DNA of 64,000 bases, taken from positions 9,736-73,735 of the forward strand of contig MFZX01000031.1 in the NCBI GenBank assembly GCA_001788095.1, given 5' to 3'. The notes below the pieces were generated by a model, which saw only the letters and a list, made by a program, of their open reading frames with translations, was not told the DNA's origin and made no database searches. This DNA is from Candidatus Roizmanbacteria bacterium RIFCSPHIGHO2_12_FULL_37_23 (GTDB lineage: Bacteria > Patescibacteriota > Microgenomatia > UBA1406 > HO2-37-13b). The position numbers and the translations under genes were made by a program. Positions within the stretch are counted from its first letter, which is position 1. Each line of letters begins with the position of its first letter. Below are positions 29,241 through 63,798 of this stretch, piece by piece.

Positions 29241-29305
29241 GTCGCTATCATATTTCGGCACATGCCGAATCCCTGCCCCACGTAAGCGCCGGTTTCCTGG
29301 GCCAC

Positions 29306-29378: not shown

Positions 29379-29532
29379 TGGGGGCTTTGCTATTTGTGCT
29401 GCACGACACCGAAGGGTTTACGAGATACTGGCAAGAGTTTGTTTCTTGCTTTTTTGTTTTTTTTGTTTTGTATCTTGTTGTTTGTTTGTCCCTTTGGTGT
29501 CGTGTGTTGTAGTTTTAATCATATCTTAATCT

Positions 29533-36563: not shown

Positions 36564-38372
36564 ATGAGATATGTGCGATTTTGGACTGTACTCATTTTTT
36601 TCCTCATCACAGCTATAACAGTATTTTTTTATACTCCCTCAGAAACATCTGCTCAAAGTACTACGCTCGTCTGCCCCGCTCCTCCCGCGCCTGATATACC
36701 TTTGGCAGTAGGACAAATCCAACTTCAACGTGGTCCTGGTAAAACATATACATGTGGGCCAGGCAATTATTTTAATATCGGCAAAGGCGGGCCAAATCAG
36801 CCACAAACAGAATGTGATAATCTTGCAGCCGGAGTTGCAGTCCCAGTTGGAGGACAATACAAATACAACCAGCTCAGTGGAGGTTTTCAAAGAGTGTATA
36901 CCCCCATAGCTAATCTTCTGGAAAACGGAGATGATCCCAGAAATTTTACCTGCAATATCACATTAGGTTGTCAGCAATCTTGTGTTCCACCTCAGGTAAT
37001 CGGTATATGTGATCTAAATTGCAATTTTGCAATTATTCCTTCTAGTCTTCAATGTTTACAATATGGAGGAGCGCAATCCTTTGATATCACCATAGTAGGG
37101 CCAGGTACTGGTGTTATGTCATGGGATGATGGTAAACAAGATACACCTGTAGAAGATGGTTCTCCTGTAGCTCATACATATGATAATGCAGGAGTCTACG
37201 ATATAAGACTTAATTGTAATCAAGGTGGTCAGCTATGTTCAAAAAGAGTGAATGTGCTTTGTCAACAGGGTGGTGGTGGTGGACCAACTCCTACCCCATT
37301 ACCTACAGCTACTCCAACACCAACAGGAGGTGCATCATGCGCTCCAGGTCTCCAATGTATGGATCCTTGCGCATGTAACACAAACTCTGCAGCATATCAA
37401 CAAAGTTGTCCAAACGGTCCCGGTTCTGCAATTGGTTCCAAAAAAGGGAAACAGCTCGCAAAAGGCGATAAAGCTGTTTTGGGAACTCAGCTTGCCCAAG
37501 CTGTAGGGGGAGCTCCTGGTAGTATAGCTGATGGAGGAGCTTGTGGACCAGGTCTTGTGTGTTGTCAGGCTGCACCATCTATAGGAACTGATCCTTGGTG
37601 GAAAGTCAAAGATGGTGCGTTCCATAAACTAGGAAATCTTGTTGATCCTATTCCTGATCCAGACAATGCAGATCCTTTTGACAATAATGATGATGGACTG
37701 TGTGATCAAACTGATCCACTTTCAATCACGTGCCTAAATATTAATCAGCCAGGTGTAGTTTCCGCTCATGGATTTATTGATACGGCACATGCTCCAATTT
37801 CGTATAGAGGATGGAAACTTGAAAATGGAAACTATAATCTCAATAATGTTATGACCCCAACTGCGTTTCGGGATTATGTGATAGCTCGAAAAACCTATGT
37901 ACAAATAAATGACTTCTCAGAAATGCAGAATGATACTGTTAACTATATCGTTGGCGACTATACAATAAATAATAACGGACACCAAGGAAAGTCAAATTTC
38001 ATTCTCATTATCGATGGTAATCTAACAGTAGATCAGAATAATCAGTTTAACCCTTCAAACAAACCGATGGGATTTGTGGTAACAGGCAAAATGAGTATTC
38101 GCTCAAACGTCGAAGAAATGAATGGTATTTATATTGCACAGGATGTAGATTTTGCTTCAGATATTCTTCCTGGAAACACAACAGAAAATGAATTAAAAGT
38201 TGATGGGAATCTCGTATCGTTTACTGAAAGTGAATGTACTGAAAAACGACAACGCACCGATAATAACAATAAACCGTCATGTTTCTTTGTACACAATATT
38301 GTGGATCATTACCTCCCGCTCATGGATATGTTATCAGTAAGAACTTATGAATGGGAAGAGCTTGTGCCGTAA
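36564..38372 (+). CDS. secreted Cys-rich protein (602 aa) with GGGGGPTPTPLPTATPTPTGG linker
   Basis: Signal peptide ...SETSAQ, many Cys. Confidence 0.5.
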   Translation: MRYVRFWTVLIFFLITAITVFFYTPSETSAQSTTLVCPAPPAPDIPLAVGQIQLQRGPGKTYTCGPGNYFNIGKGGPNQPQTECDNLAAGVAVPVGGQYKYNQLSGGFQRVYTPIANLLENGDDPRNFTCNITLGCQQSCVPPQVIGICDLNCNFAIIPSSLQCLQYGGAQSFDITIVGPGTGVMSWDDGKQDTPVEDGSPVAHTYDNAGVYDIRLNCNQGGQLCSKRVNVLCQQGGGGGPTPTPLPTATPTPTGGASCAPGLQCMDPCACNTNSAAYQQSCPNGPGSAIGSKKGKQLAKGDKAVLGTQLAQAVGGAPGSIADGGACGPGLVCCQAAPSIGTDPWWKVKDGAFHKLGNLVDPIPDPDNADPFDNNDDGLCDQTDPLSITCLNINQPGVVSAHGFIDTAHAPISYRGWKLENGNYNLNNVMTPTAFRDYVIARKTYVQINDFSEMQNDTVNYIVGDYTINNNGHQGKSNFILIIDGNLTVDQNNQFNPSNKPMGFVVTGKMSIRSNVEEMNGIYIAQDVDFASDILPGNTTENELKVDGNLVSFTESECTEKRQRTDNNNKPSCFFVHNIVDHYLPLMDMLSVRTYEWEELVP

Positions 38373-38423: not shown

Positions 38424-39227
38424 ATGAAAACTGAAGCAAATAAAAAATCGGGTCAAATACTTCTTATCGTAGTGCTTGTTGCAACTTTACTAATGACTAT
38501 TGGCCTCTCACTTACGCAGATTACAGTTGATGATACCAAAATTGCGAAGCTCGAGGAAGAAGGCAAAAAAGCACGAGCTGCTGCAGAAGCTGGAATTGAG
38601 GTTGCAATCGACCAATTAGACGTGGGGGAAACTCCAATTCAAATCGGAGATATCGTTGATAATGACATGACTGGACAAGCAGAGTTAACTACAACAACAA
38701 CAAATTCTTTCACAACCCCCCTCATATCTAAAGACGGACTCTATATGTTTTATTTAACAGGATATGATGCGACAACAAAACAGATAATTTCTACTGCTTT
38801 TAATGATGATATTATTGTTAATGTCAATAGTCCAAAAGGAACCTTGTGCGGAACTATTAACGAATTCGCACTCGAACTTACATTTGTCAATAAAACCAGA
38901 GGGATCGTGTCGCGCAAGCTTATTGAAGAATCTGGATGCAACGTTGTAGAAACAACTAATGGGATTGATGAAGTGACTTTTGGGGAAGTTATTCCTACAC
39001 TTCCTTTTTCAGATGACCCTCATCTTCTTATAACTCGTATTATTGCACCTAACGATGCATTTACAGGTGTAAAACTAGATATCGTCAACGCAACTAATAA
39101 CAGCTGGCCAATACAAGGCAGAACGATTATTTCTACAGCTACATCGCCAGCAGGGGTAACTAAAAAAATCAAACTTTTCCAGTCCTTTCCCCAATTCCCA
39201 GCAGAATTCTTTATAACAAGTTTCTAA
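38424..39227 (+). CDS. protein with pilin-like N-terminus (KKSG|QILLIVVLVATLL)
   Basis: Basic residues, Gly, then about 20 hydrophobic residues as in class III (prepilin) signals. No E+5, so only pilin-like. Confidence 0.35.
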   Translation: MKTEANKKSGQILLIVVLVATLLMTIGLSLTQITVDDTKIAKLEEEGKKARAAAEAGIEVAIDQLDVGETPIQIGDIVDNDMTGQAELTTTTTNSFTTPLISKDGLYMFYLTGYDATTKQIISTAFNDDIIVNVNSPKGTLCGTINEFALELTFVNKTRGIVSRKLIEESGCNVVETTNGIDEVTFGEVIPTLPFSDDPHLLITRIIAPNDAFTGVKLDIVNATNNSWPIQGRTIISTATSPAGVTKKIKLFQSFPQFPAEFFITSF

Positions 39228-43637: not shown

Positions 43638-45383
43638 TTAATTAGCAACCACAACTAAATCAGACGAAAGTTGAATGATTGAAGCTTTGGGATCTTTTTC
43701 TTTTATCTGTCCTATTGCATCGCTACTAAAACGTGGAATAACATATACATACTTTTCAATAATATTGAATCGTGCTAAAACATCGCTCTGATTCACTAAT
43801 GTGCTATGTTTTATACCCGAATCGTTACTAAAGTGAAAAACTTTTTGGACATGATAATTTGGAAAAGCAACGATATACACATTTCTTTTAGGATAATTTT
43901 GTTCAATAAAACGGGCCGCAACAACAGAAATATCGGTATCTTTTCTTGTAGCTTGCTTGAAATATATAAAATTAGATATTCCAAACACGACCAGTAATCC
44001 TCCTCCTAACATAAAAAATATAAATGACTGTTTGAGTAGAATTTTCTCAAAAGGCATTGTCATAAGTAATACCAGCAAAGGGAATACTACAATGATCCTA
44101 TGAAATGCAGGTGGAGGAAGTGTCATAACCATTCCAGTAAAAAATGTGGTAAAGATCGTAAATAGAATAAGACCCACAAGATAATTCTTTTTAATAAAAA
44201 TCAATGAAAATAGTGCACCTACCAGAAATAAAATCAGTGAAATAGGTTCAAACAAAGCTTGAGATCCGAAAAAGAAACCCTGACTACCCCCTATGTCGCT
44301 TATATATAGTGATTTCAGTGATAAAAATACATTATCTATCAATCGTACATCTGTGCTTTTCAAAACATCAACTTGCTGATATCGTTGTAATAAGTATATG
44401 TTTTTTGTTCCGAGCATATAACCAATAAAGGGCAGCATAACAATAGAAAAACCATATATTGATATAAAGATATCTATGAGAAACTTTTTCGATCTTTGAA
44501 AAAGTAGAGCTACAATATACACAATTATCATAAGGGGAAATGCATGATATGATTTCGGATCAAAAAGGTAACAGAAGCCACCAAAAAAACCGGTCATAAA
44601 AAAAGAGAGTTTGGAAGGTTTTTTTAGTGACCGAGCTAGAAAATAAAAAAACCATATAAAAGCTGCGAGTGTGCCTGCGTGCAAAGTAGCTAAAGTATCG
44701 TGATATAAACTTATCGCAAAAAAGGTATACAAAAAGATTGCAATTAAGGTTATTCTAAAAGAAAAAACAAGACGAGCTAAAAGAAAGAAGGCTAAAGCCG
44801 TCAAAAATATATAGGGAAGTGTTGAAAACTTTACACTTAGAAAACTCTCTCCAACAAAACTAAAATATAATTTTTGAATACCTAAGAACAATGTAGCCTG
44901 CTGGCTCACCCATGCAGCGGGATCAATTGGAAATGGACCAAAAAAATTAACCTTAGTAAAATCATATATTGATGTAAAGTAAGCAAGTATATACTCATCT
45001 CCATGCACTCTGTTGATATCCAAAAGAAGTGCTCGAACAAGGGTTGGAACAAGTGAAATGAGAATTGCAGTTTTTAAGATTGAAATATCTTCTTTAGAGA
45101 GTCTTGTAGAAAAAAAGTACAGACTTCCAATCAGAGAAAGCAGCCATAGCAGTATGTAATAGGAATAATAGTGGCCAAAATATATTTTGAAAGCAATAAT
45201 GATACTTAATAGAATAGAGCTTCCTAAAGCCCCATATCTTAATATATTATTAAAGCTTTTTGAAGATTGTAACTTTTGGGTGGTCATAAACGGTAAAAGA
45301 CTCATCAGCCCATTGGTCATTAATTGAAAAATATGGATAAGATGTAAATTCTTGGACCTGCATAAAATCCCCTCTCCCCGCAA
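43638..45383 (-). CDS. polytopic membrane protein, GT-C (ArnT/PMT-like) glycosyltransferase candidate
   Basis: HGDEY acidic motif in the first loop, more than 10 TM helices. True start probably an internal Met, since the track ORF overlaps the upstream gene by 134 bp. Confidence 0.45.
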   Translation of the reverse strand: MRGEGILCRSKNLHLIHIFQLMTNGLMSLLPFMTTQKLQSSKSFNNILRYGALGSSILLSIIIAFKIYFGHYYSYYILLWLLSLIGSLYFFSTRLSKEDISILKTAILISLVPTLVRALLLDINRVHGDEYILAYFTSIYDFTKVNFFGPFPIDPAAWVSQQATLFLGIQKLYFSFVGESFLSVKFSTLPYIFLTALAFFLLARLVFSFRITLIAIFLYTFFAISLYHDTLATLHAGTLAAFIWFFYFLARSLKKPSKLSFFMTGFFGGFCYLFDPKSYHAFPLMIIVYIVALLFQRSKKFLIDIFISIYGFSIVMLPFIGYMLGTKNIYLLQRYQQVDVLKSTDVRLIDNVFLSLKSLYISDIGGSQGFFFGSQALFEPISLILFLVGALFSLIFIKKNYLVGLILFTIFTTFFTGMVMTLPPPAFHRIIVVFPLLVLLMTMPFEKILLKQSFIFFMLGGGLLVVFGISNFIYFKQATRKDTDISVVAARFIEQNYPKRNVYIVAFPNYHVQKVFHFSNDSGIKHSTLVNQSDVLARFNIIEKYVYVIPRFSSDAIGQIKEKDPKASIIQLSSDLVVVAN

Positions 45384-46992
45384 AAAGATCTTTATAAAAT
45401 TTTGACATTTGCGGATACCGTTCCGGTGCAGTTAAAATACTCCCATATCCTCTATTACTTGAAAAAATATAGTAGTCAGCTTGTTTTAAAAGACTATCAA
45501 TACGATTCCATTTATCCGGTGTATCAGGATCAAATACTGGTAATTGATCTATTTTATACAGCAAAGGTGAATCGTAATTTATTGGCAAAGGTAAAGCATC
45601 GTCCCAATGCTCTGTCACAATATGAGAGCCAGCGGGAATATTCTTATATATCCATTGCGAAGCTGTTACTCTGCTGTGAGGACGAGTATAAATTGCCATA
45701 AAACCTAGTGGCCAAATAGATACGAAAATGAGCAATATTGATATAGCTAGTTTTTGATATTTCTTTACTTTCTCTATGATAGTGACGATACCAAAAGCAC
45801 CTATAATCGCAAAAAATGGATATAAAGGATAAAAATATCTCATTCCCATAACAAATTGCGTACTTTGATAAAGAAAAAAACCAATAATCCAGAGAAAAAT
45901 AACATAAAATTCTTTTTTTCTATGTTGCAAAAAATCTCTAACACCGATAAGAACGATTAAAAAATAAGGAATTCCAAGGCCAAAGACTGCTAAATTTATA
46001 AGAGGAAATGCGATTGATTGCTTATGGACCCACTGGACGCCAGGCGGGAACCATACGTTAGGATTCGAATAGGTGTTTAATTGTTTAATATTTTCTATAA
46101 ACTGCGGATTTGGATGGATATCAAAAAAATTAGCATTCGTAAAAAGGCGTGGATCTGCTAAACGTAGAGCGATATAGAAAGTTATTAAAAACAAACCAAT
46201 ATGAATAACCAATGTCATTGGATGTATTGCTGGTGAGTCGATGTTGGAGTAATAACCAACCTTCGATGTTGGTTTGTACTTCAACCTACCGGATCTACGT
46301 CTTAACAAGATTGGGAATTTTTCGTTTATCATTGCTAAGACAATCAAAACAATGATGAGAAAGGTTGGTAGGATGGCCGAGAGCTTTGAAGCAAATGCTA
46401 GACCAAGTATTGTTCCACATAGAGCAATATCAATCGTACGTTTATCGTAAAAATACCGAAGCGAAAAGTATATTGACGCTAATGCAAAAAAAACGAGAAA
46501 TGAGTCTGTTGTAAAAAAATGTGCATTTTGAATAGGTACTACTGCAATCGCATATAAGAATCCTGCAAAATATTTTATTCGATTATCAATCTTATACTTT
46601 TGTTCCCATAACTGCATCATCTTTATGACAAAAATAAGGCTTAAAACGTCAAAAATTGCGCTTAATGCACGGCCATATATGGCCGTTTCGTTATACGTAT
46701 CTACGTTGGAAAAAACAACGAATAACTTATTGAGAGTGAGAGGAAATGTTCCATATACGAAAAAACTGAAGCCAATATTATAAGGGTTTAATGTTGATTG
46801 TGTAGGATTCATGTATTGAGTAATTGATTCAGGTATTTTCATTGCATTTGAAACCATAGTGAGGAAACGCTCATCTGGATGAAGATGTTGGTTTTGATCC
46901 CAATTTAGGCCATATAGTCTAAGTATAAGAGCGAGTAAAACAATGGTTATAAAAAGAAACTTCTGCATTGTAGGACTAAGTAAAAATTTCAA
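45250..46992 (-). CDS. GT-C family 39-like (ArnT / protein O-mannosyltransferase-like) membrane glycosyltransferase; contains an in-frame R1 repeat
   Basis: LHPDERF (DE motif) near the N-terminus, many TM helices. The repeat-encoded segment is LKYKPTSKVGYY. Confidence 0.55.
   Translation of the reverse strand: MKFLLSPTMQKFLFITIVLLALILRLYGLNWDQNQHLHPDERFLTMVSNAMKIPESITQYMNPTQSTLNPYNIGFSFFVYGTFPLTLNKLFVVFSNVDTYNETAIYGRALSAIFDVLSLIFVIKMMQLWEQKYKIDNRIKYFAGFLYAIAVVPIQNAHFFTTDSFLVFFALASIYFSLRYFYDKRTIDIALCGTILGLAFASKLSAILPTFLIIVLIVLAMINEKFPILLRRRSGRLKYKPTSKVGYYSNIDSPAIHPMTLVIHIGLFLITFYIALRLADPRLFTNANFFDIHPNPQFIENIKQLNTYSNPNVWFPPGVQWVHKQSIAFPLINLAVFGLGIPYFLIVLIGVRDFLQHRKKEFYVIFLWIIGFFLYQSTQFVMGMRYFYPLYPFFAIIGAFGIVTIIEKVKKYQKLAISILLIFVSIWPLGFMAIYTRPHSRVTASQWIYKNIPAGSHIVTEHWDDALPLPINYDSPLLYKIDQLPVFDPDTPDKWNRIDSLLKQADYYIFSSNRGYGSILTAPERYPQMSKFYKDLFAGRGDFMQVQEFTSYPYFSINDQWADESFTVYDHPKVTIFKKL
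46235..46300 (+). repeat. R1 repeat variant b lying in-frame inside the GT39-like CDS (RPE-like situation)
   Basis: aaccaaccttcgatgttggtttgtacTtcaacct; translated on the minus strand as YKPTSKVGY. The copy at 39262 gives the same peptide in the spurious ORF 39075-39293. Confidence 0.6.
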
Positions 46993-47757: not shown

Positions 47758-50157
47758 TTACAGCTTAGCTCGTTGTACCGTCTCTGCTTCAACAAGCTCT
47801 TTAGGCTTACCGTATTTTAGACGAGATAACTGAATAATAGCTTTTGCTATCTTATCATTTGCCTTGTCTTTGAAATTCGTCATGTCTTTTGTCATATCAA
47901 CTGAAAATGGTGGAACAGGTTCATTACTTACAATGGTTTTCATATATGCGTGATATCGATCAATATTAATAAGATCTGTTTCTGAAAAAACTGGCTGGAA
48001 TTCACGTGCAATATATGAAGCGTCTGTCACTCCAACACGAAAACAACACAAGGTTCCCACGTTACCAAACACTGCATTTTTAACTTCTTCTTCCATCTGT
48101 CCAATAAATTGATTCGCAACAGTAAGGCCTAATCGATATTTTCGTGCTTCAGAAAGTATGGTTGCAAAATCTGGTGTTGCAAAATTCTGGAACTCATCTA
48201 CATATAGGAAAAAATCTTTACGTTCATCTTCCGGAATTTCTTGTCTTGACATCGCAGATATTAAAATTTTAGGGATAAGTACCAGTCCAAGAAAGCTTGA
48301 GTTTTCTTCTCCAAGCTTACCCTTACTTAGATTTATAAGAAGAATTTTCTTCTCATCCATAACCTTCCGGAAATCAAATGCTGACTTAGATTGACCAATA
48401 ATATTACGAATAGTAGTATTTGTTACAAAGCGTCCAAATTTTGAGACTATATAATCAAGCGTTTCTGATTTATGGAAATCGCTTGTTTGGGCTATCTGAT
48501 CAGTCCAAAATCGTCGTACAATCGGATCTTTTACTTTAGGAAGTACTTCCTGCACATATTTTGTATCTGTTAAGATACGAACAATTTCGATAAAAGTAGC
48601 CCCCTCTTCTGCCATAACAGTCAACATTGCATTTCGAACAGTATGTTCAAACCGCGGACCTACGATACCAGTGCGCTGTGGATCGTATAATTTATACATA
48701 AGATTAATTATTCCTGTTGTCATGAAATGTTTTTCTTCTTCAGAATTAGCTTCAAGAAGATTGAGTCCCATTGGTCTATCGGTATCAGAGGGATCAAAAT
48801 AAATGACATCTTCGGCTCGCTCAGGAGGAATATAGCGTAACAACCCTTCAACCAAATCTCCGTGAGGATCTATAACACACACGCCGTGGCCTGCCTCAAT
48901 ATCCTGTACTGCCATATCATGGAGAAGTACTGATTTTCCAACACCTGTTTTTCCAATAATATAGACGTGTCGGCGTCTGTCTTCAAGCAACACGTGTACA
49001 GGTCTCCTAACGCCTCGATAATGACCGTGACCAATAAATGTTCCACCTTCTTGAGGTACTTCGGAAGAAACAGGCGCAGTTTTAGCCTTAACCCATACGA
49101 TAAAGGGTGTTTCAACGGTTTTATTTGGGAAATGAAAAAGTGTAGCTAACTCCTCAGAAGACAAAACTGAGACTGTTTTCATAAATGGAAACTCAAATAC
49201 AGGGAAAAATTTATAGATAAAATTAACCATAAACCCGTATGAAAAAAAGGCTCGAGCGCCTGTGAAACTATTGAGATCTGACGCGAATTGAGAAAATGCT
49301 GTTTTGAGATTTTTGAGGTGGAGATCAGCCATTTCTTTTGTTTGCGCTGATGTTACAAGACGAATCGCTACATCAAAACCGGGCTTGGTCACCTTTTCAT
49401 CAATCTTCTCAAGAACCTTTTGATCAACTCTAAACGTAGCTTCTTCAGGCGAAGCCTCCTTCTTTTTGGTTGAGGATATATATGATCTCCCTTCATCTCT
49501 ATGTTTGGATTTTGTTGACCGTATAAGGATCTGTATTATGCTTCCCTCATCATCTCCTAATTTAGAAAATGGTGATGAAATCAATGAAAGCGAATCTGTT
49601 GGGAGTTCTTTATAGGTTTTTATTGGATTAAAGGCTGAGTTTTTCTGTTTTAAAGCAACAAAAGCAACCTTACCATTTTCATGAAAAATATTGGGCTCTT
49701 CAACCAGACTAATATCGCACGAGGGGTAGAATGCATAAATTTGTTTTTCAACGAGGTCTTTAAGCCGTGCTGGAGCTGAAACATAAAACCCAATTTTTCC
49801 TTTAGTTCCGATTATTTCAAAAGCGAGAGCGTCATCAACTTCAAAAAATGACCAGAGCCCACTGTTTCCGAGCGAGGCAAATGAAGAAAACATTTGTTCA
49901 GCTGCATCAATTTTTATCTCGTTATCTTTAGGCAATCGAACTTCGAGTGTGATCATCTCGAGTGAAATCTTCTCCCTCTTTCGCAAACGAATGAAAATAA
50001 CCAATACATATATACCAATTGCTACTATCGCAAGCGTGATAATAACAGCAAAGAAGATTATGAGCGATACAATCAGCCCATTGAGAATTTCAGTACCAAC
50101 AGACTCCATAGTAGCATTATACAGAATTGTTGAATTCCTTGTTATAATATTCCCCAT
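47758..50157 (-). CDS. VirD4/TraG/TraD-like coupling-protein ATPase (FtsK/HerA superfamily), N-terminal TM
   Basis: YIIGKTGVGKS Walker A, DPHGD, YVDEFQNF Walker B, membrane anchor; 799 aa. Confidence 0.5.
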   Translation of the reverse strand: MGNIITRNSTILYNATMESVGTEILNGLIVSLIIFFAVIITLAIVAIGIYVLVIFIRLRKREKISLEMITLEVRLPKDNEIKIDAAEQMFSSFASLGNSGLWSFFEVDDALAFEIIGTKGKIGFYVSAPARLKDLVEKQIYAFYPSCDISLVEEPNIFHENGKVAFVALKQKNSAFNPIKTYKELPTDSLSLISSPFSKLGDDEGSIIQILIRSTKSKHRDEGRSYISSTKKKEASPEEATFRVDQKVLEKIDEKVTKPGFDVAIRLVTSAQTKEMADLHLKNLKTAFSQFASDLNSFTGARAFFSYGFMVNFIYKFFPVFEFPFMKTVSVLSSEELATLFHFPNKTVETPFIVWVKAKTAPVSSEVPQEGGTFIGHGHYRGVRRPVHVLLEDRRRHVYIIGKTGVGKSVLLHDMAVQDIEAGHGVCVIDPHGDLVEGLLRYIPPERAEDVIYFDPSDTDRPMGLNLLEANSEEEKHFMTTGIINLMYKLYDPQRTGIVGPRFEHTVRNAMLTVMAEEGATFIEIVRILTDTKYVQEVLPKVKDPIVRRFWTDQIAQTSDFHKSETLDYIVSKFGRFVTNTTIRNIIGQSKSAFDFRKVMDEKKILLINLSKGKLGEENSSFLGLVLIPKILISAMSRQEIPEDERKDFFLYVDEFQNFATPDFATILSEARKYRLGLTVANQFIGQMEEEVKNAVFGNVGTLCCFRVGVTDASYIAREFQPVFSETDLINIDRYHAYMKTIVSNEPVPPFSVDMTKDMTNFKDKANDKIAKAIIQLSRLKYGKPKELVEAETVQRAKL
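50138..50143 (+). promoter_or_regulatory. TATAAT -10 box 12 nt upstream of the ATG at 50156
   Basis: gttataatattccccATG. Confidence 0.3.
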
Positions 50158-52503: not shown

Positions 52504-53109
52504 ATGTCCACTGTGGTCGCGTTGTTCCTGGCCTATTTCCTCGGTGCGATCCCGTGGGGGATCGTATTTTGCCGGCTGGCAAACGGTCGTGATCCGAGAG
52601 AGCACGGATCCAGCCGAACCGGAGGAACAAACGTCTACAGGACGTCTGGGCCTATCCCAGCTATACTCACCGTTGGGTTTGATGTTGCCAAGGGCTATGC
52701 TGCCGTCATTTTGGCAAGCCAGCTCTCCGGCGGAAGCCCGATCGTGATCTCACTCGCCGCAGTGCTCGCAATAGCCGGGCACAACTGGTCCGTCTTCGCC
52801 GGTTTCAAAGGGGGTGCCGGAACGACGCCGAACGTTGGTGCCTTACTGGCGATCTTCCCCCAAATGGTCGTAGTCGCGCTTGGGCTCAGCGCGATTACAC
52901 TGATCATTTGGAGACAAGCGTCGCGAGCGACCATCATCAACTCTCTCGCGACCACAGGTGCAACTGGCGGTCTCGCGTTGTTAGTTTCCCCTGCCTATCT
53001 ACTTTACGGCGTAGGACAGCTTGCACTAGTGCTCTACGCGCTGTATCAGGGGGGGAACCTTCGGCGCCTGATCCACGGAAACGAAATCCGAGCTGAGCGG
53101 ATTAGGTAG
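52504..53109 (+). CDS. plsY: glycerol-3-phosphate acyltransferase PlsY (acyl-phosphate dependent)
   Basis: GAIPWG, GSSRTGGTNVYR (compare GSGNPGATN), HNWSVFAGFKGGAGTTP (compare H-x-x-S-x-F-x-x-FKGGKGVAT). Confidence 0.75.
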   Translation: MSTVVALFLAYFLGAIPWGIVFCRLANGRDPREHGSSRTGGTNVYRTSGPIPAILTVGFDVAKGYAAVILASQLSGGSPIVISLAAVLAIAGHNWSVFAGFKGGAGTTPNVGALLAIFPQMVVVALGLSAITLIIWRQASRATIINSLATTGATGGLALLVSPAYLLYGVGQLALVLYALYQGGNLRRLIHGNEIRAERIR

Positions 53110-56056: not shown

Positions 56057-57505
56057 ATGGATATATTTTCTTTACACAAACTAACCCTCACTACGAAAAC
56101 CCTCTCTTTAATAACAATCGTCTTTATCTTCCTCGCGTTCTGGTATAAAACTTCCATATTTCTTGATCCTGACTTTGGCTGGGAGATACGTATGGGACAA
56201 TATATTTTAAAAAACGGTATTCCATACACCGATCCGCTCTCCTACACTATGCCAAGCTACCCCATAATCGCACATTACTGGCTTAGTAGCAGCCTTATTA
56301 CACGAATTTATCCTGTCTTCGGATATGTCGGTCTTGCTGGTATTGTTTCTTGCTTTTCTTTACTTGCCATGCTTATTCTTGTCCCCCGAAAAGGATTTTC
56401 ACTTAGCCTCATTCCTCTCTTACTAGCTACTTCTGGACTTTTTTCATATGCAAGCGTACGACCACATTTTTTTACCTGGCTTTTCCTCGCTTTCATATTT
56501 CGAATTACTACCGATAAAATGTTATGGAAAAAATACTGTTGGTATATCCCTCTTCTTTTTATACTTTGGACTAATATACATGGGGGCTTTGCAGCGGGCC
56601 TTTTCTTAATCTTAATTAAGCTCATCGTTGATGCATGGCATGAGAAAAAAATAAATAAACAAATCGCGCTTATCAGCACCCTTTCAATCGTTGCTACATT
56701 TATTAATCCTTATGGAATATATGTGTGGAGAGAAATATTTATCACCATCTTCGATCCTGGAACACGGATAGGAATAAACGAATGGCAACCATTTATTTCT
56801 CGATTATCGCTCATCCACGCGCCTGTATTAGTGTTACCGCTTGTACTTTTTGCTCGATACTTCCGCTCATTCACACTTTTAGAAAAATGTTTTTTCGTGA
56901 TACTTCTCATTAATGGTTTTTCAAGCAGTAAGATGTACCCCATGTGGCTTCTCTACAGCATATATTTCTCAACAAAAGGACTTCTGTTTCTAACATACGA
57001 AGTAAAAAACAATAAAATTGCATCGCAGAAACTTAATATTATTCTATCTTGCCTCCTGATTATTGCAGGCACATATACTTCCACGTATGGTTTTCGGGTT
57101 TATACGATTTATAAACAACTATCTGAAGAGAGATTTTATCCCAAAAAAGCGGTTGAATTTATAAAATTACATCCTACTCAAGGCCATATTTTTAGCTCAT
57201 TTTCGTGGGGAGGATACGTGTTATGGAAACTGCCCGAGCATAAAACGTTTGTAGATGGAAGAATGCCACATTGGGAAAATCAAAATGCTTCAAATTCTGA
57301 AAGTAAAAAGGCAATAGATGATTTCCAAAAAATTCTTAAAACTGAACTCGCATTTGATAATATAGCTTCAAAATATACAATTGATACACTGCTTCTTCCG
57401 AAAGAATACCGGAAGAAATTCAAAAAGTTCTTCCTAGCTCTTAAAAAAGACGATTGGAAGACTATCTACAAAGACGATATATCAGTCATCTTAAGGAAAG
57501 ATTAA
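56057..57505 (+). CDS. polytopic membrane protein (GT-C-like glycosyltransferase candidate)
   Basis: 482 aa, more than 10 TM helices, directly upstream of the GT2 DPM-synthase-like gene. Confidence 0.4.
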   Translation: MDIFSLHKLTLTTKTLSLITIVFIFLAFWYKTSIFLDPDFGWEIRMGQYILKNGIPYTDPLSYTMPSYPIIAHYWLSSSLITRIYPVFGYVGLAGIVSCFSLLAMLILVPRKGFSLSLIPLLLATSGLFSYASVRPHFFTWLFLAFIFRITTDKMLWKKYCWYIPLLFILWTNIHGGFAAGLFLILIKLIVDAWHEKKINKQIALISTLSIVATFINPYGIYVWREIFITIFDPGTRIGINEWQPFISRLSLIHAPVLVLPLVLFARYFRSFTLLEKCFFVILLINGFSSSKMYPMWLLYSIYFSTKGLLFLTYEVKNNKIASQKLNIILSCLLIIAGTYTSTYGFRVYTIYKQLSEERFYPKKAVEFIKLHPTQGHIFSSFSWGGYVLWKLPEHKTFVDGRMPHWENQNASNSESKKAIDDFQKILKTELAFDNIASKYTIDTLLLPKEYRKKFKKFFLALKKDDWKTIYKDDISVILRKD

Positions 57506-57516
57506 CCTCAACTTAG

Positions 57517-57549
57517 CCTCAAATCCCACCTCGGGAGTGGGATTTGAGG
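57517..57549. repeat. R2 hairpin repeat after the membrane protein gene
   Basis: cctcaaatcccac-CTCGGGA-gtgggatttgagg. Confidence 0.55.
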
Positions 57550-57601
57550 CTAGAGCATGGGCATGCAACCTTAGAGGCTGACAATATGCTACAATATCCG
57601 T

Positions 57602-58534
57602 ATGAAAAAGGACTTTCTGCTTTCGGTTGTTATTCCAGTATTTAACGAAGAAGGAAATATAAATACACTTCTGAAAGAACTCATTCCAATTGTTTCCACC
57701 TACGAATATGAGATTATTTTTGTAAATGACGGATCCCAGGATAAAACAGAAGAGGAAATAAAAGTTTTTGCCCAAGAAAATAAAAACATTAAGCTCATTT
57801 CATTTACGCGTAACTTTGGCCATCAAACAGCACTTACCTGTGGATACCAATACACCAAAGGTGACTGCGTAGTAACTATTGACGCTGACCTTCAAGATCC
57901 TCCAGAACTTATTCATGAAATGGTTAAAAAGTGGGAAAAAGGGTTCAAAATTGTTTACGCGAAACGAAAAATGCGTGAAGAATCGCTTTTTAAAACTTTG
58001 ACCGCTGATTTTTTTTACAACGTAATTAATATGCTCTCTCAAACGCCAATCCCACGAAATGTTGGTGATTTTAGACTCATTGACAAACATGTTGTTGAAC
58101 TCCTCAATCATATGCCAGAACGATTTAGATTTTTACGAGGCATGGTGGCTTGGGGAGGCTTTCCATCAACCTATGTTTATTTCGATCGTAAGAAAAGGTT
58201 AACTGGTGAAACACACTATCCTCTTTCAAAAATGATTGGTTTTGCACTAAATGGCATTGTTTCTTTCTCAACAAGACCGCTTCGCATAGCGATATATGTA
58301 GGTATACTTGCATCAATTATTGGAATAGTAGGTATTATTTACGCGATATATCGAAGGCTCTTTCTCCCATCTGCCTATTGGGTTCCTGGATGGACGGCCA
58401 CGTTCGTAGCAATAATGTTTTTTGGCGGAGTGCAGCTCATTACTATTGGAATCATTGGAGAATATATTGGAAAGATATACTCGGAGATTCAAGGTCGACC
58501 GCAGTATTTAGTAAAAGAAAAAGTCAATATTTGA
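57602..58534 (+). CDS. GT2 polyprenol-phosphate glycosyltransferase (dolichol-phosphate mannose synthase / ArnC / GtrB-like)
   Basis: LSVVIPVFNEEGNI, DGSQD, DADLQDP, C-terminal two TM helices. Confidence 0.75.
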   Translation: MKKDFLLSVVIPVFNEEGNINTLLKELIPIVSTYEYEIIFVNDGSQDKTEEEIKVFAQENKNIKLISFTRNFGHQTALTCGYQYTKGDCVVTIDADLQDPPELIHEMVKKWEKGFKIVYAKRKMREESLFKTLTADFFYNVINMLSQTPIPRNVGDFRLIDKHVVELLNHMPERFRFLRGMVAWGGFPSTYVYFDRKKRLTGETHYPLSKMIGFALNGIVSFSTRPLRIAIYVGILASIIGIVGIIYAIYRRLFLPSAYWVPGWTATFVAIMFFGGVQLITIGIIGEYIGKIYSEIQGRPQYLVKEKVNI

Positions 58535-58582
58535 GACTGGAGAGTTAACTTTCAAATCTCCATTTTCAAATCTCAAATCATT

Positions 58583-58732
58583 ATGCGTCGTGTCGGATAT
58601 CTACTTATCGCAATCGGGCTCGCTTTATTGGTTTTTCTGGGCTATTCCTATTGGAGACAGCGAAGCCGCTTTATAACACCTATTCCTGAAGATAAAGGAG
58701 TAAAAGTAATATTTATTACACCGGGAAGTTAA
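58583..58732 (+). CDS. small membrane protein (49 aa)
   Basis: ORF found manually; preceded by R5-type repeat ttcaaatctccattttcaaatctcaaatc. Confidence 0.25.
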   Translation: MRRVGYLLIAIGLALLVFLGYSYWRQRSRFITPIPEDKGVKVIFITPGS

Positions 58733-58735
58733 ATC

Positions 58736-59122
58736 CTACGGTGTATCTCCGGGTATTTCGAACTCAAGGATACTGTGTTCTAATCCAAGAAGGATATTTA
58801 TTGCGTTTAAAATAAGATACGAACCTAAGAATAGTGCTGTTCCAATCAGAGCATACTTTAAGGTTCCTTGCGCCTTTTTAACACGCTCCGGATCTCCACC
58901 AGAAGTTAAATAGAAAAATGAGCCTACAACAAACATGATAAAAAGTACTAATACAACAAGTCCTGAGGAAAGAATTAATATATTACTGAATACCACCTCG
59001 AGACATTTAAGTGTTGGAACACCATCGACTACACACGAATTCCCTTCGAGGCTTTCTATTTGGGCATACGCAGAAAAAGAAGGAAGTAGAGAAAAGAATC
59101 TGCTTGAAGCTGATAATGGCAT
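58736..59122 (-). CDS. VirB2/TrbC-like pilin paralogue (signal peptide, two TM helices, TSGGDPERV loop)
   Basis: SAYAQ signal cleavage motif, then hydrophobic-loop-hydrophobic topology shared with 59125-59553. Start set at MPLSAS. Confidence 0.4.
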   Translation of the reverse strand: MPLSASSRFFSLLPSFSAYAQIESLEGNSCVVDGVPTLKCLEVVFSNILILSSGLVVLVLFIMFVVGSFFYLTSGGDPERVKKAQGTLKYALIGTALFLGSYLILNAINILLGLEHSILEFEIPGDTP

Positions 59123-59124
59123 TT

Positions 59125-59553
59125 TTATGGTGTACCTGGGGGTTCCAAAAGATTTGGCAACGTAACCGGGCATGAAATACCGAAACATAGTTGCTGATCA
59201 AAAACAATCTGCTCAAGACTCCACATAACCGTTAAGGTCGTAATAATAACCAACACGCCTACAAGAGCAGCTATAATCTTACCTCGTGCCGCAGCAACAT
59301 TATCCTTATCTCCACCTGAAGTTACCCAAGCTAATGCTCCCCAAAGTAGAAAAAAGAGCGCTGCGATACCTGCAATAACGAAAAAGAGTCGTACCATGAA
59401 CGAAAGTAATTCTCCAAAGGTTGGTACAGAAAATCCAAGGTCTACTTCGTTAATCTGTATATCTCCTGGAGCAGGTTGAGCATAAACTGAAGAAGAAAGC
59501 TTCATCAAAAAAAGAAATGCCGTTGCAAAAAAGCTTGTTAGAATAGTACGCAT
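59125..59553 (-). CDS. VirB2/TrbC-like pilin paralogue
   Basis: SVYAQP signal; TM1; TSGGDKDNVAAARGKIIAALVG loop; TM2. Confidence 0.4.
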   Translation of the reverse strand: MRTILTSFFATAFLFLMKLSSSVYAQPAPGDIQINEVDLGFSVPTFGELLSFMVRLFFVIAGIAALFFLLWGALAWVTSGGDKDNVAAARGKIIAALVGVLVIITTLTVMWSLEQIVFDQQLCFGISCPVTLPNLLEPPGTP

Positions 59554-59566
59554 AGTTTTAGTATAA

Positions 59567-60097
59567 ATGAATTTTTTCGATTGTCAAGGAGAAAATAGCA
59601 AGGTATTGAAAGTTAAACTGATTTCTGCTATACTACAGGCTATGGATGACGCTAAACGTGTTTTTGCTATATTTGCAGCTCTTCTACTCATAATTATTAT
59701 CATTGGAGTAGTTGTGAATCGAGTCGCTAAAGAAAAAGGAAATATTCCTATTATTGGAGGCGCTCTGGAAAGAGTCCTGTTCCCTAATAGACCTACTCCT
59801 AAACCTGAAGAAAAGGAGCTTGTCGAAAAGACTGATAGTAATAAAGAACCGGCTCAGGGTTCGGATGGTTCAATCATCATTAAAAAAACGACTAGCTCAC
59901 AAGATTCTCAATTAACAGAATCAATTAATGAAAGCGCTGGCCAAACACTTGGTGGAACCTCTTCTGATTCCACTCAATCTAAAGGAGGACAACAGGCTAA
60001 TTCGATTCCAGCTACAGGTGCTCCTGCCGCTATCATCATCTTCTCTCTCTCAGGTCTCGTGAGCGGCTTATATCTGAAACGAAAAGCTTCAATTTAA
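59567..60097 (+). CDS. surface protein with S/T-rich region and C-terminal IPATG sorting-type motif, TM and KRK tail
   Basis: ...SIPATGAPAAIIIFSLSGLVSGLYLKRKASI*. Confidence 0.4.
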   Translation: MNFFDCQGENSKVLKVKLISAILQAMDDAKRVFAIFAALLLIIIIIGVVVNRVAKEKGNIPIIGGALERVLFPNRPTPKPEEKELVEKTDSNKEPAQGSDGSIIIKKTTSSQDSQLTESINESAGQTLGGTSSDSTQSKGGQQANSIPATGAPAAIIIFSLSGLVSGLYLKRKASI

Positions 60098-60168
60098 AGC
60101 TACACTCCTAACTCACCTACACTCTGAGTCTAAGAAAATGCGAATAGACATGTGAAGAGATTTTTATC

Positions 60169-60705
60169 TTACCCAAATCCTGGTAATCCTAATCCTGTTG
60201 AGATCACTCGAAGTATAAATACTGAGAAAAGCGCGAATAATAACCCGATAATTGCTCCATAAATGATGCGCTTACCGTAATTCAAACGTGCTGGATCTGA
60301 ACGTGATGTGGCAACAACCCCTGCGCCATAGAGGAAGAAAAGAAATGCAATTCCCCCTATTATGGAAAAGAAAAAACTTGAAACTGCGGTTGCAAACTCC
60401 CCTGGGAGAGTTGATATACAACCGAAATCTGTATAAAAATGTTCAGGATCCGGTGTTGGTAAACCAATAAGAGTACTATTTGAACTTGGATCTATATCTC
60501 CTTCTCCAAATCCGCGATAGAGACATCGGCGGCAGTCCTGCCATCTGCCTGGAAGTATTGCTCCCTCACAGTATCCACACACATCACAATTTGCTTTACC
60601 AATATATGGCGTCGGTGTTGGTGTGGGAGGTTGCTGCGCATTAGCTGGAAAGACATTCACAAATAGTGAAGTAACAAGAATAAGTAATAAAAAGATTTTA
60701 TTCAT
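60169..60705 (-). CDS. Cys-rich secreted domain fused to VirB2/TrbC-like pilin module
   Basis: PANAQQ signal, CDVCGYCEG..CRRC, then two hydrophobic helices with ATSRSDPARL loop. Start set at MNKIF. Confidence 0.35.
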   Translation of the reverse strand: MNKIFLLLILVTSLFVNVFPANAQQPPTPTPTPYIGKANCDVCGYCEGAILPGRWQDCRRCLYRGFGEGDIDPSSNSTLIGLPTPDPEHFYTDFGCISTLPGEFATAVSSFFFSIIGGIAFLFFLYGAGVVATSRSDPARLNYGKRIIYGAIIGLLFALFSVFILRVISTGLGLPGFG

Positions 60706-60817
60706 AGGACTTGATTCATTATATATCACTCTACTTTGATTATGCAAAAATTGGTATATACCGACCGTAGCCGCGATTAAATCGGGGCGAAGGGGTATAG
60801 TCAATGTTTGGGAAATT

Positions 60818-62521
60818 TTGCAATTGTTCTATAATAATCGTATGCAAAAAATTCTTGGAGCTCTTTTTATTACAATAATATTTTTTGGGTTATGCTTTTC
60901 CGTAAACGCAGACGAGCTTGATGATATCAGTCATGAACTTGATAAGCTGAATAGAGAACTCGAGGATTCAAAAAAAGCAACAAAACCTCTTGAAGAGGAT
61001 CTTGACAGACTTCGTAAACAACTTTCAAATATCAAATCTCAAATATCAAATATCGAATCCGATATTGTCCTAAGAGAAAAACAGATTGTTACCGCAGAAA
61101 AAGCTTTAGAAAAACAAAAGGAAATAATTGATGAACGAATTAACGCACATTATAAAAATATTAAAAAAGCAGAAGCATCTTTGATTGATATCCTTATTAC
61201 AGATAACCTTTCCATCTCTCTTCAGAATTTTTTCTACCAAAAAAAAGCAGCGGATAATGATAAACAGACAATACTCCGCATCGTCCTTTATATCAAAAAT
61301 ATTGACGATAAAAAAACAGAGCTCGCTTCAGAAAAAAATAGATTGGCTCAAGTAAAACAAACTGTAGACGAGCAATCGCAATTTCTCTCAGGTGAAATAG
61401 GAAAAGCAAAGGACTTTCAAGCTGAATTATCAGGACGTATCGCGTCATTGACCACCCGTCAGCAACAATTGATTGGGCAGAAACTGGCGAGCTTAAATAT
61501 TCCCCGTTCGGCTGGTACGTCTTCCCGAGGATGCTCAAGCGATCTTACAAACGGCCGCGATCCCGGATTTTCTCCTGCAATAGGTTTCTTTACATATGGA
61601 GCTCCACACCGTAATGGCATGAATCAATATGGTGCTTGGGGACGAGCTAAATCAGGACAAAACGAAGAACAGATTCTCGCAGAATACTATCCGAATATGA
61701 GTTTGAAAAAGGATTTTGACCAAGGAACTCAAATTAATGTTGATGGATATGGAACATTCTCTATCGAAGATTATGTGAGGCGCATTTATGAAGTTCCAGA
61801 TTCGTGGACTGACAATAATCTTGCTGTACTTAAAGCGCAAGCAGTCGCAGCAAGAACGTATGGTCTTAATTCTATGCAAAGGAACGGTCATATTTGTACA
61901 ACAGAAGCATGCCAAGTATTTAAGGCCGAACCAAAAGGTGGTAATTGGGAACAAGCTGTTGAAGCTACAAAAGGATGGGTGCTAATGGATGGAGGAAATC
62001 CTGGATTTACACAGTATGCTTCAACACATGGTGGTTATATATTAAATCTTGGAAAGTTTGATGGTTCAGGAGGAAATCCGACAAATTTTTCAGAACTTAA
62101 CGAACGAGCGTATGATAGAGAATCTCCATGGTTTTATTGCAATTGGGGAGCTCGAAGCCAATACGGGGGCACTGCATGGCTCAAGTCCGAAGAAGTTGCT
62201 GATATCGCAAATGTGATTCTCCTTGCACGATATTCTGACGTTGATAAAGAACATCTATATCAAGTTGATAAACCAAATCCCGCAGGAAAAGAAACATGGG
62301 ATGCGGAAAAAGTAAAATCTGAAATTCGTGCTCGTGGAGGTAATCCCGTAGGAGATGGTTCAAATACATCGGTATCTGTCGATTTTGGCTCAGGAAAAAC
62401 TTCTTCTGTAAATGTTGGAGGTACGAGTTTCGACGCAGGCGAATTTAAGGATTGGTTTAATCTTCGAGCACCTGCAAATATCCAGATCGTCGGTCCTTTA
62501 TTTAATGTGGAGAAGAAGTAG
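60818..62521 (+). CDS. SpoIID/LytB-domain protein with N-terminal coiled coil (peptidoglycan-remodelling)
   Basis: GMNQYGAWGRAKSGQNEEQILAEYYPN and AVLKAQAVAARTY signatures of the SpoIID family. Confidence 0.55.
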   Translation: MQLFYNNRMQKILGALFITIIFFGLCFSVNADELDDISHELDKLNRELEDSKKATKPLEEDLDRLRKQLSNIKSQISNIESDIVLREKQIVTAEKALEKQKEIIDERINAHYKNIKKAEASLIDILITDNLSISLQNFFYQKKAADNDKQTILRIVLYIKNIDDKKTELASEKNRLAQVKQTVDEQSQFLSGEIGKAKDFQAELSGRIASLTTRQQQLIGQKLASLNIPRSAGTSSRGCSSDLTNGRDPGFSPAIGFFTYGAPHRNGMNQYGAWGRAKSGQNEEQILAEYYPNMSLKKDFDQGTQINVDGYGTFSIEDYVRRIYEVPDSWTDNNLAVLKAQAVAARTYGLNSMQRNGHICTTEACQVFKAEPKGGNWEQAVEATKGWVLMDGGNPGFTQYASTHGGYILNLGKFDGSGGNPTNFSELNERAYDRESPWFYCNWGARSQYGGTAWLKSEEVADIANVILLARYSDVDKEHLYQVDKPNPAGKETWDAEKVKSEIRARGGNPVGDGSNTSVSVDFGSGKTSSVNVGGTSFDAGEFKDWFNLRAPANIQIVGPLFNVEKK

Positions 62522-63482
62522 CTGAAAATATCTTTCTAACAATATCCTCTATTTTCTCTTCATAAATATTAAGGTCTACGAATTCAATATTTTTAGTAAT
62601 TTTTTCGATTGTCTTTGAAATCTCACTTCTTTTTACTTGAAAAAAAAGTCGCGGAAATTCAATTTCAATATTGTTATCTAACTTTTCCAAAACTTTAACA
62701 TCGGGCATATCCTCAACTATGACTTCGATTGTCTTCTTTGTTGCATATTTTTTAATCAACTTTTCTAGATAGCCATCATAAATAATTTTTCCATGATCTA
62801 TAATCATAACTCGCTTGCAGAGTTCTCGAACATCTTCCATATAATGACTTGTTAATAAAATCGTTGCACCATACAAGCGCTGATAATCTTTGATGAAATC
62901 CCGAATCGTTTTTTGTGCAACGATATCAAGACCGATGGTTGGCTCATCTAAAAATAGAACTTTTGGCCGATGAAGAAGTGATGCAATAAGCTCCATCTTC
63001 ATACGCTGACCAAGTGATAATGTTTTAGCAGGCTGATATATAATTTTTTTAGCATCAAGGAGTTCGGTCAATTCATTAAGTGTTTTTGTATATACTTGAT
63101 CGGGAATTTCGTAAATTTCTTTATTCAATCTAAATGTATCAATTGCTGGGAGCTCCCATAAAAGCTGGTTTCTCTGCCCCATAACAAAAGCAATCTGCTT
63201 GAGAAATGCTCTTTGTTTTTCAAAGGGAGTAAAATCTAAAACATTTAATACTCCTTTTGTTGGGAAAAGAATGCCAGCAAGCATCTTCATAGTTGTTGTC
63301 TTTCCTGCACCATTTGGGCCCAAGAAACCAACCAATTCCCCTTGTTCAATTTCAAATGAAATATTATCAACCGCTGTAGTCATCTCGTATTGGCGGTGAA
63401 ATGTATTTCGCACAAAATCAAGAAGCCCTTCCGTGTGTTTGGTGGTCCTATAAGTCTTGGTAAGATTCTTAACCGAAATCAT
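62502..63482 (-). CDS. ABC transporter ATP-binding protein
   Basis: GFLGPNGAGKTT Walker A, LSLGQRMKM signature, LFLDEPT Walker B. Confidence 0.8.
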   Translation of the reverse strand: MISVKNLTKTYRTTKHTEGLLDFVRNTFHRQYEMTTAVDNISFEIEQGELVGFLGPNGAGKTTTMKMLAGILFPTKGVLNVLDFTPFEKQRAFLKQIAFVMGQRNQLLWELPAIDTFRLNKEIYEIPDQVYTKTLNELTELLDAKKIIYQPAKTLSLGQRMKMELIASLLHRPKVLFLDEPTIGLDIVAQKTIRDFIKDYQRLYGATILLTSHYMEDVRELCKRVMIIDHGKIIYDGYLEKLIKKYATKKTIEVIVEDMPDVKVLEKLDNNIEIEFPRLFFQVKRSEISKTIEKITKNIEFVDLNIYEEKIEDIVRKIFSATSSPH

Positions 63483-63546: not shown

Positions 63547-63798
63547 TTACCAAGGACACTGATATATTTGAGGACAGACCATGCATCCCTGAACCAATCT
63601 TGTTCGACATTGACTTGCACAAAAATAGTAGGCTCTGCATTTTATATTTGAGTCACATGATGGTGCATCAGGATAAGTTTTACACATATTATCTACTTCT
63701 TCAGCACTTGGACATACTGGAGAATCACAATAATAATACCCTCCATCTCCTCTCGGATATTGGTTACAATTACCGCCACCTTTTATCGTACAAAGCAA
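63547..63798 (-). CDS. small Cys-rich protein
   Basis: 83 aa with about 16 Cys. Confidence 0.3.
   Translation of the reverse strand: MLCTIKGGGNCNQYPRGDGGYYYCDSPVCPSAEEVDNMCKTYPDAPSCDSNIKCRAYYFCASQCRTRLVQGCMVCPQIYQCPW

Follow-up and report, generated by a model that had tools for sequence, protein, structure and literature searches.

What do three small two-helix membrane proteins, encoded beside a putative sortase substrate and a SpoIID-like protein, contribute to the cell of a patescibacterium, an ultrasmall member of the candidate phyla radiation? The question is raised by a locus of Candidatus Roizmanbacteria bacterium RIFCSPHIGHO2_12_FULL_37_23, on a 64,000-nucleotide stretch of contig MFZX01000031.1 that we refer to as the window. 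An earlier note on this DNA had proposed that these proteins, together with a VirD4-like ATPase, make up a reduced or novel pilus system resembling a type IV secretion system (T4SS). Our analysis instead indicates that the locus is probably a chromosomal array of three anciently diverged pilins of the PF18895 family, serving as pilin-type subunits of the patescibacterial T4SS, with the ATPase core of that machine (PrgI/VirB3, a TraC-like protein and VirB4) encoded elsewhere in the genome. The idea of a reduced or novel system did not hold up: the locus matches the VirB2-like array already known from chromosomal T4SS of Patescibacteria (PMC12102498, PMC10633639, PMC12857230).

The three pilin-type genes, which we call A, B and D, lie on the minus strand, and all five genes of the locus are where the earlier note had located them. 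Together with one non-pilin gene, C, they form an array in the order D, C, B, A that spans 1.97 kb. Pilin A (58736-59122, 128 amino acids (aa)) was assigned by Pfam, AlphaFold2 and its homologues, and pilin B (59125-59553, 142 aa) by Pfam, hydrophobic segments and orthologue order. Pilin D (60169-60705, 178 aa, in an open reading frame (ORF) that extends to 60804) combines a Cys-rich domain with a PF18895-type hairpin. On the plus strand, protein C (59642-60097, 151 aa, within ORF 59567-60097) carries an IPATG sorting signal, and a secreted coiled-coil SpoIID/LytB-like protein (60842-62521, 559 aa, in an ORF beginning at 60818) is encoded divergently from pilin D. Alternative starts for pilin A reach up to 59188, and gene callers also choose starts that give 145 or 150 aa. 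Pilin D probably starts at M34, since it is called thus in two other assemblies.

We assigned the three proteins to PF18895 (Type IV secretion system pilin; gathering cut-off 26.6 bits). A (35.5 bits) and B (26.7 bits) both pass the cut-off and are members by this profile, and D (26.2 bits) falls 0.4 bits short. D almost certainly belongs with A and B, because most of its homologues bear a precomputed PF18895 hit and because the D family aligns to the A family with an hhalign probability of 92.9% (E 3.7e-7). We found 547 homologues of pilin A at E<=0.001 in Roizmanbacteria and Microgenomates, the listed ones mostly 58-70% identical, and 74 homologues of pilin D. The closest named homologues of both are from Candidatus Roizmanbacteria, and some homologues of both are named "pilin" or "Type IV secretion system pilin" by NCBI and JGI. 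With such numbers of homologues, the array members are, as judged from sequence, real conserved genes and not chance ORFs.

The features that the earlier note had read from these proteins are all present in A, B and D. A cleavable-looking leader closes with AYA|Q in A, where it is only weakly hydrophobic, with VYA|Q in B and with ANA|Q in D. Each protein has two long hydrophobic segments joined by a short, net basic loop with a T-S start (TSGGDPERVKK in A, TSGGDKDNVAAARGK in B and TSRSDPARLNYGKR in D), and the tails end in IPGDTP (A), PPGTP (B) and LPGFG (D). AlphaFold2 models, resting on alignments of 63 sequences for A and 68 for D, show a helical hairpin in both: helices 38-72 and 78-111 in A (predicted local distance difference test (pLDDT) score 76.9), and helices 101-133 and 138-171 in D (pLDDT 87.4), where the Cys-rich domain is also well predicted. 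The earlier note had named the lack of a two-helix fold as a sign that would speak against pilins, and for A and D, the two proteins modelled, the pilin claim passes this check.

Cysteines are a recurrent feature of all three proteins. Cys30 and Cys40 are invariant in the pilin A family alignment, and pilin B has a C-terminal pair (CFGISC); cysteines that flank the hairpin never vary within the family alignments of A and of D, and recur in the few B orthologues read. The fusion of one pilin to a Cys-rich domain, also described in the earlier note, concerns D, whose N-terminal domain (CxxCxxC...CxxC...GC) has six cysteines that are invariant in 68 homologues. Searched against 1.84 billion proteins, this domain matched 31 representative clusters, and in 10 of the 10 matches inspected it was fused to a pilin hairpin. 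Several of the inspected matches have a further C-terminal domain past the conserved IPGF tail. Both the Cys-rich fusions and these additional domains would fit a topology with both termini outside the cell.

The three pilins do not behave as recent or variable copies. Across species, sequence identity among the orthologues of each pilin is 38-63%, compared with 44-58% for the SpoIID-like protein, 52-73% for a neighbouring GT2 glycosyltransferase and 24-30% for protein C. Because pilin orthologues are about as conserved as their housekeeping neighbours, A, B and D are old lineages, each conserved in its own right, which points to fixed, distinct roles. We ruled out hypervariable copies by the same cross-species identities, and the age and individual conservation of the paralogues argue against the idea of antigenic variation for this array. 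Type IV pilus pilins were also rejected as candidates, as these have a class III leader (G|F/M-xxx-E) and a single N-terminal helix, in contrast to the AxA|Q leaders and two helices found here.

Arrays of this type have been described. In a survey of 3,035 Patescibacteria genomes that used PF18895 and profiles related to it, Quinonero-Coronel et al. (2025; PMC12102498) found VirB2-like pilins in 1,948 VirB4-containing assemblies, beside virB4 in 1,135 of them. The pilin arrays in that study hold 2-11 divergent genes, in tandem or parted by one non-pilin gene, with paralogues averaging 25% identity, and are abundant in Microgenomatia. Our locus has the composition used there to define an array: at least two pilin genes, one non-pilin gene between them and low paralogue identity. 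Because its paralogues are 24-30% identical to A (30% for B) and one non-pilin gene lies between them, we regard it as a new example of a known array type, not as a new system. In Southlakia epibionticum, the T4SS cluster SEML1_0006-0019, pilin genes included, is essential for epibiotic growth as measured by transposon sequencing (Tn-seq) (Wang et al., 2023; PMC10633639), and among monoderm T4SS the patescibacterial one stands out by having pilin genes (PMC10633639, PMC11665869, PMC12857230).

Where, then, is the machine that these pilins would serve? We used the SpoIID-like protein to fetch 71 loci (labelled with L numbers) from species-representative genomes, and annotated them with ad hoc profiles built here and a regular expression for the sorting signal; 64 loci had enough upstream sequence to be compared. 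In 56 of the 64, the SpoIID orthologue is closely preceded on its own strand by a gene for an IPxTG protein; a Cys-rich pilin D divergently adjoins the SpoIID orthologue in 48, and both stand beside it in 46. DnaA is encoded within the flank of 29 loci, and at least one of PrgI, TraC-like and VirB4 within the available flank of 17. The typical order is PrgI-TraC-like-VirB4, XerC, DnaN-DnaA, then C, D and SpoIID, then thioredoxin, with other genes in between. In several relatives (L010, L012, L026, L028, L033, L088 and others) the C/D/SpoIID triad lies beside dnaA-dnaN, 4-8 kb from the PrgI/TraC-like/VirB4 genes. Where the triad is near dnaA, a further conserved two-helix membrane protein with the N-terminus MxxNPQxLFxWKAPLRPY is encoded beside C (L010, 11111-11608; L028, 8786-9484), and it has no counterpart in the window array. 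Many of the L011-L081 genomes are metagenome-assembled third-party annotation (TPA) entries titled "uncultured Gammaproteobacteria bacterium"; these titles are wrong, since gene content and similarity to Roizmanbacteria show the genomes to be Microgenomates.

A second group of genes, comprising pilin B, pilin A, a 49-aa protein, GT2 and DivIC, recurs in twelve loci, and B orthologues directly precede A orthologues in L004, L006, L009 and most other loci that have both. There are thus two conserved modules, C/D/SpoIID and B-A/49-aa protein/GT2. In the sub-lineage of the window (L008/L019, L009, L022, L024 and L076) the two modules lie next to each other, with dnaA and VirB4 no longer neighbours. 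C and D remain together through rearrangements elsewhere (L041, L059). In the complete Roizmanbacteria genome CP066689.1, VirB4 is encoded at ~64 kb and the B-A pair at ~132 kb, 68 kb apart, so that at least one genome with the T4SS core does have a pilin pair remote from virB4.

These layouts bear on the proposal of a self-contained system, in which the three pilins, the sortase substrate, the SpoIID-like protein and the VirD4-like ATPase would act without a VirB4 machine. The ATPase (47758-50157, minus strand, 799 aa) is genuine, as the earlier note had it: by its domains (T4SS-DNA_transf, 29.1 bits against a cut-off of 20.1; TrwB_AAD_bind, 26.3 against 20.5; TraG-D_C, 22.2 against 22), its Walker A and B motifs (GKTGVGKS and VDEFQN) and its match to TrwB in the PDB, it is classed as a type IV coupling protein (T4CP)-type ATPase. 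It is syntenic with the array in the window and, at the same relative position, in L009, L022, L024 and L076, and the window is without VirB4, all of which would suit a system complete in itself. Its involvement is a different matter. The gene lies ~8.6 kb from the array, with RNase H, XerC, DivIC, PlsY, a tRNA and further unrelated genes in between, and relatives with the same pilins carry PrgI, TraC-like and VirB4 proteins. VirB4 itself is ~80% conserved and very widespread among homologues, many of them named Roizmanbacteria. Coupling proteins are not known to assemble pili (PMC12857230); in the phylum, VirD4-like proteins occur in nearly all genomes, usually remote from virB4 (148 of 5,713 lie near it), and the homologue in S. 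epibionticum is non-essential (PMC12102498). We therefore consider a self-contained pilus very improbable.

Several observations weigh against assigning the array to the patescibacterial T4SS. VirB4, VirB3 and VirB6 were found neither in the window (64 kb) nor in the 10 kb past its 3' end. The most constant neighbours of B-A are a glycosyltransferase and DivIC, not T4SS genes, and all 71 comparison loci belong to one lineage, so that part of the synteny could be due simply to common descent. About a quarter of the related genomes keep C upstream of SpoIID without pilin D (in L028 with a gap of 49 nucleotides (nt), on the same strand), which implies that C and SpoIID may not need a pilin to function. 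Aligned with hhalign to seven annotated plasmid VirB2/TrbC proteins, the A and D families gave probabilities <1%; the pilin A family profile matched zero PDB chains at E<=10, and every Foldseek match of the A and D models in the PDB had E>1. The helical hairpins match many unrelated proteins, and an archaeal conjugation pilin (8dfu) ranks only 6th and 11th. Patescibacteria are not known to bear a pilus of this type.

The earlier note's description of the pilins as VirB2/TrbC-like thus stands in part. PF18895 membership and topology agree with it; A, B and D gave no match to PF04956 (TrbC/VirB2) at E<=0.1, and profile comparison detected no similarity to VirB2 or TrbC. Both the A and the D family have AxA|Q as their consensus cleavage site, and A45, A47 and Q48 are invariant in the VirB2/TrbC alignment. 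By these comparisons, "VirB2/TrbC-like" is accurate as to topology and Pfam name, and no further. A gene of the TraX family (PF05857), which is the family of the F-pilin N-acetylase, lies between C and pilin B in L009 (11345-12004) and L024 (7775-8542) and is absent from the window; its presence inside the array in these two loci would count for the pilin reading.

Many of the same facts could suggest that the two-helix proteins are membrane proteins of envelope biogenesis or cell division, acting with GT2, DivIC, the SpoIID-like hydrolase and C, and that "T4SS pilin" is a misnomer here. B-A sits beside GT2, the 49-aa protein and DivIC, and 68 kb from VirB4 in the complete genome; C and SpoIID remain same-strand neighbours in loci that lack D; the orthologues evolve at housekeeping-like rates; and sequence similarity to canonical VirB2 is lacking. 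The coiled coil joined to a wall hydrolase also recalls EnvC and PcsB, which are division hydrolase regulators. We nevertheless find this explanation, the main rival, unlikely. In other Patescibacteria classes, PF18895 proteins are encoded beside virB4 in 1135 of 1948 assemblies, and the pilin genes inside the T4SS cluster are essential in the one species studied by Tn-seq (PMC12102498, PMC10633639). Many relatives encode pilin D a few kb away from VirB4, and the window pilins are convergent or divergent with GT2 and SpoIID and so are not co-transcribed with them.

The SpoIID-like protein comprises a signal peptide, a ~210-residue coiled coil and a SpoIID/LytB domain, an identification made in the earlier note and borne out by scores for PF08486 (50.4 bits, cut-off 23) and TIGR02669 (95.7, cut-off 83.3) and by matches to the SpoIID structures 4rwr, 5txu and 5i1t. 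It is predicted to be a lytic transglycosylase. An E325-V-P sequence is invariant in four orthologues, and we tentatively read it as the SpoIID EMP motif with its catalytic Glu; HMMER instead aligns the structural Glu with D328. The PF08486 segment is preceded by a GMNQYGA motif (residues 317-439 and 255-301, respectively), with a weaker SQYGG at the canonical position, which suggests that the domain is permuted or rearranged. The link between this protein and the pilins that the earlier note had drawn gains support from the divergent neighbourhood with pilin D, conserved in 48 of the 64 loci compared above. That the pilins work together with SpoIID, C or the VirD4-like ATPase is something we only infer.

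Protein C consists of an N-terminal membrane anchor, a low-complexity S/T/Q/P-rich linker and a sorting signal. The signal reads IPATG, then APAAIIIFSLSGLVSGLYL (19 mostly hydrophobic residues), then KRKASI; it has the form of an LPXTG-type sortase signal, in agreement with the earlier note, and is the sole such signal among window ORFs of at least 80 aa. C itself matched no Pfam or NCBIfam family above cut-off. Its positional homologues in the 56 loci mostly carry IPSTG (21), IPNTG (17) or IPATG (14). No sortase family matched among the scanned window ORFs, and no ORF of the window or of the first 81 fetched loci contained the sortase catalytic motif TLxTC. A sortase has been reported in another Microgenomates genome (PMC7143001).

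The sorting signal raises the alternative of a sortase-assembled Gram-positive pilus with C as its polymerised pilin. The IPxTG signal of C resembles those of sortase-C pilin substrates, such as the IPQTG of pneumococcal RrgB. Other features of C speak against it: C and its homologues are 100-220 aa, mostly low-complexity linker, and C matches no known family or CnaB-type domain; reading its sequence revealed no YPKN pilin motif or E-box; and it keeps its N-terminal membrane anchor, with no obvious cleavage site. Together with the negative sortase searches, this makes a sortase-assembled pilus the least credible of the explanations that we weighed, and we rejected sortase-assembled pilins as candidates on the lack of pilin domains in C.

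Promoter-like sequences offer some indication of how the genes are read. A divergent pair lies between B and C, at 59587-59560 on the minus strand (TTGACA-16-TATACT) and at 59606-59634 on the plus strand (TTGAAA-17-TATACT with TG), and these are the two best sigma-70-like matches in 57400-62700. A third, at 60808-60835 on the plus strand, precedes the SpoIID-like gene. The three best matches in this region, whose total number of matches is not above shuffled expectation, each end 7 nt before a start codon, namely those of pilin B, of C at M26 and of SpoIID at M9. Protein C probably starts at M26 (59642), because its homologues begin at the equivalent position and the promoter-like site ends 7 nt upstream; likewise, the SpoIID-like protein probably starts at M9, given the gene calls in two other assemblies and the site 7 nt upstream. 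This spacing suggests that the pilin B, C and SpoIID transcripts are leaderless. The pilin B stop lies 2 nt before the pilin A start, and because of this gap A and B are probably co-transcribed.

If the array does supply pilins to the patescibacterial T4SS, a mechanism can be outlined. The prepilins would be exported by Sec and cut by signal peptidase, and the mature pilins would reside in the membrane in the manner of VirB2, their two termini outside the cell and the basic loop facing its interior. The VirB4 machine would then extract them into a short pilus or a wall-spanning conduit. A and B would be structural subunits, and D a minor or tip subunit whose N-terminal disulfide-rich knob faces outward. 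The SpoIID-like lytic transglycosylase could open the peptidoglycan locally as an analogue of VirB1, and the IPxTG protein C, linked to the wall by sortase, could tether the apparatus or mark its site.

A more specific proposal is that C, D and SpoIID form a dedicated, so far unrecognised wall-spanning module of the T4SS in Roizmanbacteria and relatives, in which the hydrolase opens the wall, the sortase-fixed protein serves as tether and the D knob forms the distal or host-contacting end. We put this forward only tentatively, as a possibility that we think has the odds against it. VirB1 and VirB6 homologues are scarce in Microgenomatia (PMC12102498), and such a triad, if true, would fill that gap. 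The SpoIID-like hydrolase and the sortase-signal protein are not mentioned in PMC12102498 or its text supplementary files. From the 71-genome comparison, a SpoIID-type hydrolase, a sortase-signal protein and a Cys-rich pilin subfamily emerge as testable candidates for wall crossing in Microgenomatia.

The wider setting is a low-GC (38%) Patescibacterium chromosome, with the housekeeping genes PPDK, PBP2, MetRS, ArgRS, YchF, DprA, PlsY, XerC and DivIC in the window, and with ABC permeases, ClpB, thioredoxin and ribonucleotide reductase encoded in the 10 kb past its 3' end. The array neighbours are GT2, the 49-aa protein, the IPATG protein, SpoIID and an ABC ATPase, and do not include the virB3 and virB4 genes that adjoin canonical VirB2. 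The GT2 glycosyltransferase (57602-58534, plus strand; PF00535, 114 bits) has C-terminal membrane helices and is convergent with pilin A. After it comes the gene for the 49-aa single-pass membrane protein (58583-58732, plus strand), supported by its ORF and by positional orthologues in L004, L006, L008 and others; the coordinate at which the earlier note began the locus, 58583, is the start of this conserved gene. Three large polytopic membrane proteins are encoded near GT2 (43638-46992 and 56057-57505), one matching PMT_2 and two reading as GT-C-like. Speculatively, these proteins and GT2 might form a polyprenol-phosphate-sugar pathway that glycosylates S/T-rich surface proteins such as C. 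Just past the ABC ATPase gene, ORF 63547-63798 (minus strand) encodes 83 aa with 13 cysteines and has no family match.

Elsewhere in the window, a PilX_N-like type IV pilus minor pilin (38424-39227, plus strand) follows two large predicted extracytoplasmic proteins that have no family match (33919-36519 and 36564-38372), and DprA is encoded at 29533-30654; type IV pilus and competence components are thus also present. Two GC-rich islands (26500-27900 and 28600-29450; GC 0.58-0.67) have no Pfam or Rfam match. Within them, ORF 26673-27302 (plus strand) resembles a high-GC secreted protein, and ORF 28690-28956 (plus strand) is acidic, of D/E/G/T low complexity. The plsY gene (52504-53109), found in two independent assemblies, likewise falls within a GC-rich block. 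The islands could stem from horizontal transfer from a high-GC organism or from an assembly chimera.

How does the locus compare with known systems? Its SpoIID-like protein shares with SpoIID of Bacillus and Clostridioides (4rwr, 5i1t, 5txu) a domain scoring above curated cut-offs and the motifs LKAQAVAARTY, STHGG and GMxQYGA. It differs in that GMxQYGA is C-terminal in the sporulation protein and N-terminal of PF08486 here, in its ~210-residue N-terminal coiled coil and ~160-residue extra C-terminal region, and in its non-sporulating host. PrgA and PrgC are among the LPXTG-anchored surface proteins of Gram-positive T4SS. Conjugative Gram-positive T4SS accessories (pCF10 PrgB, PMC12857230; VirB1-like hydrolases) likewise combine a sortase-anchored protein and a peptidoglycan hydrolase near T4SS components in a monoderm cell, whereas C lacks an adhesin domain and the hydrolase here has a SpoIID/LytB fold, not SLT or CHAP. 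This likeness is an analogy only, with no homology shown.

Among pilins, canonical VirB2 (Ti plasmid), TrbC (RP4) and TraA (F) resemble A, B and D in being small, in having a long leader whose AxA|Q cleavage site leaves Gln at +1, and in their two hydrophobic helices with a short basic loop between them. They differ in sequence, to the extent that neither sequence nor profile comparison detects similarity; moreover, the host of A, B and D is monoderm, the three proteins have extra Cys-containing extracellular segments, and they are not encoded between virB1 and virB3 as VirB2 is. The archaeal Ced/Ted conjugation-like pilin of Aeropyrum pernix (8dfu) is the only pilin matched by both models (target-normalised TM-score (TMt) 0.61-0.62 over 68-71 columns), in a match that is non-significant (E>2) and equalled by many unrelated hairpins. 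The closest counterparts are the VirB2-like arrays of Patescibacteria, with which our locus shares PF18895, the phylum, divergent paralogues (~25%) arranged in tandem or with one non-pilin interruption, and a chromosomal location without a relaxase nearby. Unlike those arrays, the one described here is not beside virB4 and is split into two separately conserved modules, has one paralogue with a Cys-rich extracellular domain, and has a SpoIID-like hydrolase and a sortase-signal protein encoded at its flanks.

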